The notes beneath the pieces were generated by a model, which worked only from the letters and a program-made list of their open reading frames with translations, ran no database searches and was not told the DNA's origin. Of a stretch of 64,000 nucleotides of DNA, positions 11,706-56,112 are shown piece by piece. The first letter of the stretch is position 1, and every line of letters starts with the position of its first letter. This DNA comes from Candidatus Doudnabacteria bacterium (GTDB taxonomy: Bacteria; Patescibacteriota; Doudnabacteria; UBA920): positions 129,137-193,136 of the forward strand of contig JAEUSF010000001.1 of assembly GCA_016788665.1 (NCBI GenBank), in the 5' to 3' direction. The position numbers were made by a program, and so were the translations under genes.

Positions 11706-13168
<1,463 letters not shown>

Positions 13169-31541: not shown

Positions 31542-31614
31542 AGAAGGGCCGAGGTGTTTTTATGGGTGCTCAGACAAAGAAAAAGCCCTACCTTGGAGGG
31601 TAGGACTGTTTCTT

Positions 31615-31688
31615 TGGTGGACCATCGGAGAATCGAACTCCGACATGCCGGATGCAAACCGGCCGCACTACCATTATGCTAATGGCCC
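31615..31688 (-). tRNA. tRNA-Ala(TGC), CCA encoded
   Basis: cloverleaf by hand; anticodon loop TTTGCAT; G3:U70 identity pair; hairpin plus T-run downstream. Confidence 0.8.
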
Positions 31689-31992
31689 AAGTATTTTTTT
31701 GAGAAACCTTCTTCCAGCCGCTGATTTAAAATATAATTCTCTTTTTCTTGCTTCTAAAGCTGTCGCGTACTGCTCTGTATATACCACCCGCAATCCTGAC
31801 ATTTTGCTGGTTGTTCTGGTGTGACCAGATATATGTTCCTTTAATCGCCTGTCGAGGTTATTTGTAAATCCTTTATATAACTTATTTTTATCATCTTTCA
31901 ATATATAAACAGTATACATATTGTTTCCGCACCCCGCCCGTACCGAACGGTACGTTCGGGCGGGTACCATTATGCTAATGGCCCAAGTATTT
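31669..31992 (-). mobile_element. 296-bp GIY-YIG cassette flanked by 28-bp direct repeats duplicating the tRNA-Ala 5' end
   Basis: identical taccattatgctaatggcccaagtattt at 31669-31696 and 31965-31992; GC-rich hairpin 31934-31965 between repeat and ORF. Confidence 0.55.
31674..31919 (-). CDS. stand-alone GIY-YIG endonuclease (81 aa)
   Basis: MYTVYILKD..KLYKGFTNNLDRRLKEH GIY-YIG core; stop codon lies inside tRNA-Ala 5' end. Confidence 0.6.
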   Translation of the reverse strand: MYTVYILKDDKNKLYKGFTNNLDRRLKEHISGHTRTTSKMSGLRVVYTEQYATALEARKRELYFKSAAGRRFLKKILGPLA

Positions 31993-32025
31993 AAAGCAGA
32001 TGATGTAAAATATAAGATGTAAGAT

Positions 32026-32406: not shown

Positions 32407-32483
32407 TGGTGGGCGTGCCAAGAATCGAACTTGGGACCTCGTCATTATCAGTGACGCGCTCTAACCATCTGAGCTACACGCCC
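32407..32483 (-). tRNA. tRNA-Ile(GAT), CCA encoded
   Basis: GGGCGTGTAGCTCAGATGGTTAGAGC...anticodon loop CTGATAA...TTCGATT; candidate promoter TTGTCA-18-TAAAAT upstream. Confidence 0.8.
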
Positions 32484-51798: not shown

Positions 51799-52102
51799 GT
51801 TCTCAGAAATAATTTTCACTATTTATATACTGCTCACAGATCACAGCCTTTCCATTATTACTTAGGGAATCAGGCAACTAGATCGTCAGGGGCAGTAGCT
51901 AAATGGTGATAATTCTAAAATCAGTTACGGAAAGAATTCTCATCTGTACTTTAAAAATCGAATACTAAATTATCGTATTCAACCAAACGATAATTTATGG
52001 GTAAATCTATTTAATTTTTTGTAAGTTAAATAGAATTGTAAGAAAACGAAAGAACATTGTAGTCCAGAAAATTTTTTTTAAAGAAAATTTTGACGGGACA
52101 TA

Positions 52103-55958
<3,856 letters not shown>

Positions 55959-56112
55959 TAATAACTTCTTTTTAAGAAGTAGTCCTGTCAAAATTTTCTT
56001 TCGAAAAAGTAAACACAGATCTTAGATAGCACAGATACACCGATTATATTTAGGTTGCATATTGGATGGTTATGCTTTATGTATAACCCATCCACCTCGC
56101 CCTTTTTAAAAA

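Follow-up and report, generated by a model that had tools for sequence, protein, structure and literature searches.

We analysed a stretch of 64,000 nucleotides (nt) of contig JAEUSF010000001.1 from Candidatus Doudnabacteria bacterium (the window, meaning that stretch at its full length), and in it a tRNA-Ala locus where a small open reading frame (ORF) for a protein with a GIY-YIG nuclease domain has a fragment of a tRNA gene on one side and the intact gene on the other. Sequence comparison places this locus in a large family of compact cassettes that are embedded in tRNA genes, mostly in Patescibacteria, with a few members in Bacteroidota. The unit consists of a 5' tRNA fragment split by a hairpin (a), an ORF for a GIY-YIG protein of 79-81 amino acids (aa), and an intact copy of the same tRNA (b). 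The reading that we put forward, with confidence and doubt evenly balanced, is that of a tRNA-embedded nuclease cassette borne by recombination, which regenerates its target, is now stably resident, and has a mechanism that we infer.

The cassette is read on the minus strand of the window. The intact tRNA-Ala(TGC), with its CCA encoded, occupies 31615..31688 (ARAGORN; Rfam tRNA, 64.1 bits), and the stand-alone GIY-YIG ORF of 81 aa (MYTVYILK...KKILGPLA*) occupies 31674..31919. The final five codons of the ORF, GGG CCA TTA GCA TAA, are nt 1-15 of the tRNA, and the stop codon (31674-31676) is tRNA nt 13-15, which confirms the position inside the intact tRNA that a preliminary description of this locus had given it. 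In gene-strand order, the region upstream of the ORF contains AAATACTT, a copy of tRNA-Ala nt 1-20 (GGGCCATTAGCATAATGGTA, 31965..31984), a GC-rich bulged hairpin of 32 nt (CCCGCCCGAACGTACCGTTCGGTACGGGCGGG, 31933..31964, with arms CCCGCCCG...CGGGCGGG), GTGCGG (31927..31932), which is tRNA-Ala nt 21-26, a 7-nt spacer AAACAAT (31920..31926, from reading of the sequence), and the ATG. The hairpin splits fragment (a) in the D-loop, after tRNA nt 20, and the tRNA copy resumes past it with nt 21; at the position of GTGCGG, the closest relative (L001 in our numbering of loci) has GTGCGGC, tRNA-Ala nt 21-27. The upstream element is a tRNA 5' fragment of nt 1-26 split by a hairpin, and not a 20-nt stub followed by unrelated sequence. 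As the preliminary description had stated, this partial copy is not itself a tRNA, and no tool used in this work called one there.

All features listed in that description were confirmed in the sequence. It had interpreted the locus as an insertion with a target duplication of 28 base pairs (bp). The string TACCATTATGCTAATGGCCCAAGTATTT does occur exactly twice in the window, as unstranded exact copies at 31669..31696 and 31965..31992, 296 bp apart, when none was expected from 100 shuffles, and on the gene strand it holds 8 nt of flank (AAATACTT) and then tRNA-Ala nt 1-20. However, the 8 nt are the tail of the ORF, L001 shares only the 20 tRNA nt, and the tRNA copy continues past the hairpin. 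A decayed 3' end of an earlier copy of the GIY-YIG ORF lies upstream of fragment (a), at 31985..32025 on the minus strand (repeat family D3 and alignment with L001), where AAATACTT is exact and cttatattttacatcatctgct agrees with attatattttaaatcagcggct of the ORF at 17 of 22 positions. This remnant is absent from L001, and the same arrangement was seen at another locus, L035. The 28-nt repeat is therefore no target-site duplication but the remainder of an earlier ORF-tRNA unit upstream, from tandem or serial copying. Insertion at the tRNA gene, with the tRNA left intact, was upheld by comparison with empty syntenic sites, whereas the 28-bp duplication was not.

A search with the ORF against 1.84 billion representatives returned 3040 clusters at E<=1e-3, and more than 300 close homologues were found, about 79 aa in length, of which the named ones were nearly all from Patescibacteria. 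Scanning one genome per species gave a sample of 62 loci. A co-oriented tRNA began between -41 and +122 nt from the ORF stop in 59 of the 62 loci, and in 46 the ORF ran into the tRNA; given the tRNA density in such genomes, this adjacency is not due to chance. In the unit, the ORF begins right after (a), and its final codons and stop fall within the first 10-15 nt of (b). The stop ended exactly at tRNA nt 10 in 37 loci, where the universal U8-A9-G10 is read as TAG, and a frame ending at nt 15 was present in the window and four other loci. The partner tRNAs, Ala(TGC, GGC), Thr(TGT, GGT), Phe, Val(TAC, CAC, GAC), Ile(GAT, TAT), Asp, His and Lys, span at least 10 isoacceptor types, and two genomes (L007/L038 and L009/L051) carried two cassettes each, at different tRNAs. 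ORF phylogeny and tRNA type showed partial clustering only, in a 76-aa tree that is too weak for counting switches. The earlier suggestion of a mobile cassette that targets tRNA genes thus agrees with a family found at many different tRNAs, although no sign of recent jumping was seen.

More distant homologues (46-55% identity) occurred in Bacteroidota, in metagenome-assembled genomes of Allomuricauda (L056, L062) and Chitinophaga (L058). The cassette at L056 is built in the same way and has a variant hairpin following nt 9 of tRNA-Ala(GGC); at L058 the ORF has a tRNA-Arg directly upstream and a hairpin at its 3' end. Degenerate ORF remnants were found at L057 and L059-L063. At L054 (2730-2807), ARAGORN labelled the cassette tRNA 'tRNA-Stop (tta)', with the call placed one base early; its loop CTTTTAA may alternatively present the anticodon TTT (Lys).

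To look for upstream fragments at 57 loci, we aligned the intact tRNA with the 200 nt preceding the ORF and permitted long insertions. Most of these loci had a copy of the local tRNA upstream of the ORF, starting at nt 1 and ending at nt 15-44, mostly at nt 39-41 (through the anticodon loop), and once the hairpins were removed the copy was often 100% identical to the local tRNA over 25-44 nt; about one quarter of the fragments had a diverged acceptor strand. In several Ala cassettes the ORF ATG lies in the pseudo-anticodon loop, for example at L024 (MQYTVY...). At about 10 loci, a pseudo-tRNA of the same isoacceptor, riddled with hairpins, lies downstream of the intact tRNA, and at L030, L051 and L035 this pseudo-tRNA has the same acceptor-stem allele as the upstream fragment, one unlike that of the intact tRNA. 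The ORF and the complete tRNA are therefore foreign to the resident gene. At L035, each flanking piece is also preceded by 19-27 nt of ORF tail, like the signature in the window. The pseudo-tRNA arrays imply repeated insertion, or unequal recombination among tRNA-derived repeats.

At L029 (2804-2960), a pseudo-tRNA carries up to three hairpins, in its D-loop, anticodon loop and T-arm. ARAGORN made second calls, with odd anticodon positions, on pseudo-tRNAs at L005 (2843-2918), L041 (2843-2918) and L051 (2061-2135); such calls on hairpin-interrupted pseudo-tRNAs mean that cassettes can inflate annotated tRNA counts. At L067 (Ga0209542_10010643), read with the tRNA on the plus strand, a complete tRNA-Ala stands between the inverted repeats gcaccccgcgctaaatttttt / aaaaaattagcgcggggc, with the 5' part (nt 1-31) of a tRNA-Ala on one side, a 3' part (nt 39-66) on the other and no ORF, in a region that begins about 130 nt 5' of the complete tRNA and ends 110 nt 3' of it. 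The effect is that of a whole tRNA gene placed within the anticodon loop of another copy, and it may represent a second kind of tRNA-replacing insertion.

The preliminary description had correctly placed a GC-rich hairpin and the GIY-YIG ORF between the two repeat copies. The hairpin is no incidental cargo: it splits the tRNA fragment and is the most conserved component of the module, since the 32-mer of the window was identical in the cassettes of 7 other species (8 in total) with ORFs only about 65-70% identical in protein. The window contains only one such hairpin in its 64 kilobases (kb). In 296 kb of loci, a strict pattern search found 41 hairpins 5' of an ORF and at most 200 nt away from it; of 12 others, 11 lay in pseudo-tRNAs just 3' of a cassette's intact tRNA. 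The 7-bp stem (CCCGCCC/GGGCGGG) is almost invariant and the 4-nt bulge (GAAC) nearly so, and the loop is small. The first five positions of the 6-bp inner stem were paired in 34-35 of 35 distinct sequences and the sixth in 29 of 31, with two-sided compensatory changes at five positions in a register-aware count on oriented copies; RNAalifold reported no covariation on an alignment that mixed two hairpin length classes. In the oriented hairpins, the bulge region AACG, which is nearly invariant, has its complement in a conserved CGTT within or beside the loop, and two mutually exclusive inner pairings (in the order X-Y...X'-Y') are therefore available. Rfam searches of the hairpin and leader gave only tRNA as a relevant match at gathering score or E<=1, with two further hits at chance level (E 0.38 and 0.67).

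Hairpins were inserted after tRNA nt 9, 13, 20-22, 31 or 35, and one in a T-arm, which are loops and junctions of the cloverleaf. Relative to the ORF, 40 were in forward and 18 in reverse orientation. At sister loci L008 and L033, both at tRNA-Val(TAC), a 37-nt hairpin occupies the same position (2448-2484 in each) as exact reverse complements, a difference that is an in-place flip of the palindrome. We initially favoured a DNA-only element because both orientations occurred. However, G.T wobbles lay on the ORF-sense strand by 24 to 4, in both hairpin orientations, and this asymmetry points to the sense strand instead. It suggests folding of the transcript or of the non-template strand, and a transcription-linked C-to-T bias could mimic it.

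The closest relative, represented by L001 and L002, has an ORF with 93% aa identity and shares the neighbouring genes (guaA-like, an 81-aa membrane protein, tRNA-Ile and pilM-like). L001 has the same hairpin and junctions as the window and an identical tRNA-Ala (74/74). Comparison of the window ORF with that of L002 gave 23 synonymous and 6 non-synonymous codon changes, with a synonymous divergence (dS) of 0.81 and a ratio of non-synonymous to synonymous divergence (dN/dS) of 0.045, and in the 65-nt leader (fragment, hairpin and spacer) we found 1 change, with 0 in the hairpin. Other cassette pairs had dN/dS of 0.09-0.17. The neighbouring genes, compared with L001, had dS of 1.1-3.6 and similarly low dN/dS. 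These values indicate that the ORF is under purifying selection, and that the cassette in this lineage is old, stably inherited and functionally constrained, rather than a recent insertion, since the junctions are shared with a relative at dS ~0.7-0.8 and both ORF and leader are strongly constrained.

A check named in the preliminary description was the existence of empty sites in relatives. When metagenomes were scanned with nt 8-42 of the tRNA-Ala, six contigs had this unusual tRNA, and such sites were found among them. At L069, the orthologous membrane-protein gene is followed by about 90 nt and then the tRNA-Ala, with no ORF, fragment or hairpin, and L065 and L066 were similarly empty, with a more distant membrane protein. 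The cassette is present or absent among relatives (these are not close strains), and the empty state is either ancestral or the result of deletion between the repeats.

The window ORF matched Pfam GIY-YIG (PF01541) with E=2.4e-12. Residues Y5, Y15, G17, R25, H29 and E61 were invariant among 67 homologues, so that the lack of catalytic residues, named in the preliminary description as a ground for refutation, does not apply. The AF2 model (pLDDT 92.6) has the elements E-E-H-H-E-H-H, and the protein has the GIY and YIG tyrosines, catalytic Arg and Glu, and beta-beta-alpha-alpha-beta-alpha core of the superfamily. A profile search of the PDB matched 1YWL (2.9e-8), 1ZG2 (6.3e-7) and SLX1 (0.025), and Foldseek placed 1ZG2 first, then the Slx1 nuclease domain (TMq 0.70), then UvrC-N; I-TevI was not among the best matches of either search. 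At 81 aa, with no auxiliary domain and no Asn after E61, the protein has the features by which the Slx1/UPF0213 (YhbQ-like) clade is recognised in a superfamily survey (PMC1564403). It ends 16 residues past the catalytic Glu, its last 5 codons being tRNA sequence, and the C-terminal DNA-binding region of I-TevI and Seg homing enzymes (NUMODs, zinc finger, helix-turn-helix) is not present. The NCBIfam group I intron endonuclease model scored 16.8 bits against a cut-off of 56, PADLOC found no defence family, and the best PHROGs match had only E=0.039. We therefore identify the protein as a minimal Slx1/UPF0213-type GIY-YIG domain and not an I-TevI-type homing enzyme; the earlier assignment to a homing-endonuclease type is doubtful for a classical sequence-specific enzyme, because this is a bare 80-aa domain with no DNA-binding module.

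The cassette resembles stand-alone Slx1-like proteins such as UPF0213 members BH0048 (1ZG2) and EF2693 (1YWL), which the survey describes in prokaryotes (PMC1564403), in best sequence and fold match, in its minimal domain and in the lack of a C-terminal Asn. The term tRNA occurs in that survey only for a fusion to a tRNA methyltransferase, with no mention of embedding in tRNA genes or of hairpins (PMC1564403). Another likeness is to SegB of phage T4, a GIY-YIG homing endonuclease that is free-standing and encoded in the phage tRNA gene cluster (PMC2330249; PMC13096335). SegB recognises the TpsiC stem-loop, a motif conserved among tRNA genes, and through break repair its gene spreads together with the tRNA genes next to it (PMC2330249); in both cases a GIY-YIG nuclease gene lies among tRNA genes. 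SegB, however, belongs to the I-TevI/UvrC+ lineage, in which the homing enzymes have C-terminal DNA-binding modules (PMC1564403), whereas the cassette protein has none. SegB is a phage gene and the cassette encodes an 81-aa Slx1/UPF0213-type domain in a cellular genome, and the description of SegB mentions no duplication of a tRNA fragment, no hairpin and no overlap of ORF and tRNA, all three of which the cassette has.

We propose that the cassette would enter and leave tRNA genes by homologous recombination. The tRNA sequence would provide homology arms that the cassette carries with it, fragment (a) on the left and (b) on the right. With tRNA sequence on both sides of the ORF, any homologous tRNA gene could gain or lose the cassette without flanking synteny, and because the target tRNA is regenerated, insertion would be harmless and without cost. 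By analogy with phage T4 SegB, entry may be stimulated by a nuclease break in an unoccupied tRNA gene. The ORF is probably transcribed as the 5' leader of a pre-tRNA, because it has no spacer on either side and because a terminator-like hairpin with a T-run (31584..31607, minus strand; inverted repeat I2), probably the end of the transcription unit, lies directly 3' of the tRNA-Ala. As the stop codon is inside the tRNA, RNase P cleavage would produce a non-stop mRNA and so keep the level of nuclease low. The hairpin may be a cis element that folds in the sense strand or transcript; it cuts the homology of the direct repeats into pieces of at most 20 nt, which should hinder deletion of the ORF.

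Several observations weigh against this proposal. Nuclease activity and a target site are predictions, and a domain of 80 aa that lacks a DNA-binding module would hardly recognise a long site alone. The intact tRNA would retain any target internal to the tRNA, which leaves self-immunity unexplained, and a pure recombination scar would not require the strong conservation of fragment (a) and the hairpin. An all-vs-all blastn comparison found no near-identical cassettes in different contexts, the most similar ones being at syntenic loci; one identical protein (P0035) occurred on 24 metagenomic contigs, always with the same neighbours; and IMG/VR viral contigs contained neither a homologous ORF nor the H1 hairpin. 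The dS of the ORF relative to its relative (0.7-0.8) was only somewhat under the 1.1-3.6 of its neighbours, and its dN/dS was housekeeping-like, a pattern that fits long vertical residence, perhaps with a host function, better than an active parasite. Dunin-Horkawicz et al. regarded the prokaryotic Slx1-like clade as vertically inherited and non-selfish (PMC1564403).

A more far-reaching interpretation, which we offer tentatively, is that these loci represent an unrecognised class of element resident in tRNA genes, in which a minimal nuclease of Slx1-like type, a bulged hairpin of invariant sequence and a split or duplicated tRNA co-evolve as a module, which could act as an RNA switch or as a 'cleave-and-rescue' drive. 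As an RNA switch, the pseudo-5' half could compete for the tRNA 3' half and divide transcripts between tRNA maturation and nuclease translation; as a cleave-and-rescue system, the element could be a natural drive that disables resident tRNA genes and brings its own copy. Free-standing nuclease cassettes and tRNA-regenerating insertions are the nearest known kinds, and there is a real chance that the present family is a class distinct from both. In a literature search of full text, with few subscription journals covered, we found no description of GIY-YIG genes within duplicated tRNA genes or of these hairpins.

The strongest rival to the recombination-borne cassette, possible but on the unlikely side, is a domesticated tRNA-linked nuclease module that has a host function at the RNA level and is no longer mobile. 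The protein would act on tRNA, on pre-tRNA or on DNA structures of tRNA genes, and the upstream fragment and hairpin would serve as a leader with a regulatory role, one that offers the tRNA 3' half another partner and so decides for each transcript between mature tRNA and translatable mRNA. The dN/dS of 0.045 and the single leader change at dS ~0.8 are consistent with this, as are the co-divergence of the cassette with its neighbours, the stable context on 24 contigs and the synteny of similar cassettes. The wobble pairs on the sense strand suggest a hairpin at the RNA level, the placement of hairpins in cloverleaf loops preserves the stems, and the minimum free energy fold computed for the transcript allows the tRNA 3' end to pair with the acceptor strand upstream, an alternative fold that is not universal in view of the quarter of upstream fragments with a diverged acceptor strand. 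In the survey, prokaryotic Slx1-like proteins are described as fused to TrmH-like tRNA methyltransferases and linked to COG4123 methyltransferases, and its authors proposed an RNA role for these genes (PMC1564403). Domestication does not explain, however, why at least 10 different tRNAs each have a matching duplicated fragment, why the same site is empty in related lineages, or how the arrays, ORF remnants and foreign tRNA alleles arose. Nor does an RNA-level role sit easily with the superfamily, as GIY-YIG enzymes are known as DNA nucleases.

We consider it improbable that the hairpin is a miniature palindromic mobile element in its own right, one whose targets are tRNA-like loops and which persists only where the tRNA copy is dead, with the GIY-YIG ORF linked by co-location only or serving as the mobilising nuclease. 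Its varied insertion points and occurrence in both orientations would fit such an element, as would nested hairpins, with one inside the loop of another (L016, L027 at 2396-2500, L030), and gains between close relatives (L027 has gained two hairpins relative to L025). However, essentially none was found away from GIY-YIG cassettes in 360 kb, and conservation, bulge and loop included, was far above the neutral expectation, which is not expected of junk. Short conserved imperfect hairpins with extrahelical bases, tied to one enzyme gene, are known from REP/RAYT, IS200/IS605 and integron attC systems, where they occur in both orientations and in multiple copies and the enzymes are HUH enzymes or tyrosine recombinases. 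The cassette differs from these hairpin-guided elements in its GIY-YIG enzyme, in the location of its hairpins inside tRNA-derived sequence and in wobbles that favour folding of the sense strand. No HUH (Y1) transposase of the REP/RAYT or IS200/IS605 type was found, and GIY-YIG is the only protein in the cassette.

The preliminary description had likened the locus to tRNA-targeting integrative elements. Integration is known to leave tRNA gene fragments (PMC9897764), and in Caldiarchaeum a recombinase element lies between a tRNA-Thr 5' fragment and the intact tRNA-Thr (PMC3293823). The likeness stands as far as the order of tRNA fragment, element and intact tRNA and the regeneration of the target are concerned. 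It fails in that integrative elements measure kilobases and encode an integrase or recombinase, whereas the cassette is about 0.3 kb with no recombinase; the GIY-YIG ORF is the only ORF of at least 40 aa in the repeat-bounded unit of 296 bp, and its neighbours are a guaA-like gene, the gene of a small membrane protein and a pilM-like gene; the unit thus encodes neither an integrase nor a transposase. In addition, the fragment of the cassette is interrupted by a hairpin and the ORF is fused to both tRNA pieces without spacers. As for simple direct repeats (attL/attR) of tRNA sequence at the two ends, a repeat is present here; the hairpin divides it, 8 of its nt come from the ORF tail, and its length in the relative is different. 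A miniature integrative element, a 296-bp unit at the 5' end of tRNA-Ala that makes or carries the 28-bp duplication, is very improbable: an exact repeat flanks hairpin and ORF and the tRNA is regenerated, but 8 of the 28 nt belong to the ORF itself, with additional decayed ORF sequence upstream, L001 shares just 20 nt at the same junctions, and the tRNA copy resumes past the hairpin and elsewhere reaches nt 39-44. A group I intron was also rejected, as there was no Rfam intron match (at gathering score or E<=1), no space for one where the ORF fills the interval, and an uninterrupted tRNA downstream.

The gene list of the window includes a 98-aa version of the ORF (start 31970) that reads through the hairpin, and a gene caller made a similar prediction in the relative. 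We regard this version as an over-extension with a start that is not real, because the homologues begin at MYTVY. No second GIY-YIG copy was found in the window by tblastn. A tRNA-Ile(GAT) lies at 32407-32483 on the minus strand (ARAGORN; Rfam, 74 bits). As the preliminary description had remarked, it and tRNA-Ala are free-standing, since the 16S (11707-13166) and 23S (52102-55964) genes are about 20 kb to either side, on the strand opposite to both tRNAs. The 16S and 23S genes are themselves 39 kb apart in the window and hence unlinked. The 23S match of 3863 nt, compared with a model of 2925 nt, indicates about 940 nt of insertion(s), a region in which we found no ORF of at least 90 aa and no intron family at the Rfam gathering score.

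Stand-alone Slx1/UPF0213 GIY-YIG proteins are widespread, and no report of their function was found in the literature searched; their close physical linkage with tRNA genes and with a cognate hairpin leads to a testable hypothesis for their substrate. If either variant of the co-evolving module were true, this supposedly housekeeping prokaryotic family would include selfish, tRNA-directed members. The cassettes affect tRNA annotation in Patescibacteria through pseudo-halves, hairpin-riddled pseudo-tRNAs, ORFs extended through hairpins and false second tRNAs called by ARAGORN. They also present a case in which an essential gene tolerates invasion, as the element brings a replacement for the displaced part of the tRNA, and their compact design, with the ORF stop in the tRNA and built-in homology arms, could inform how selfish genes persist in minimal genomes.

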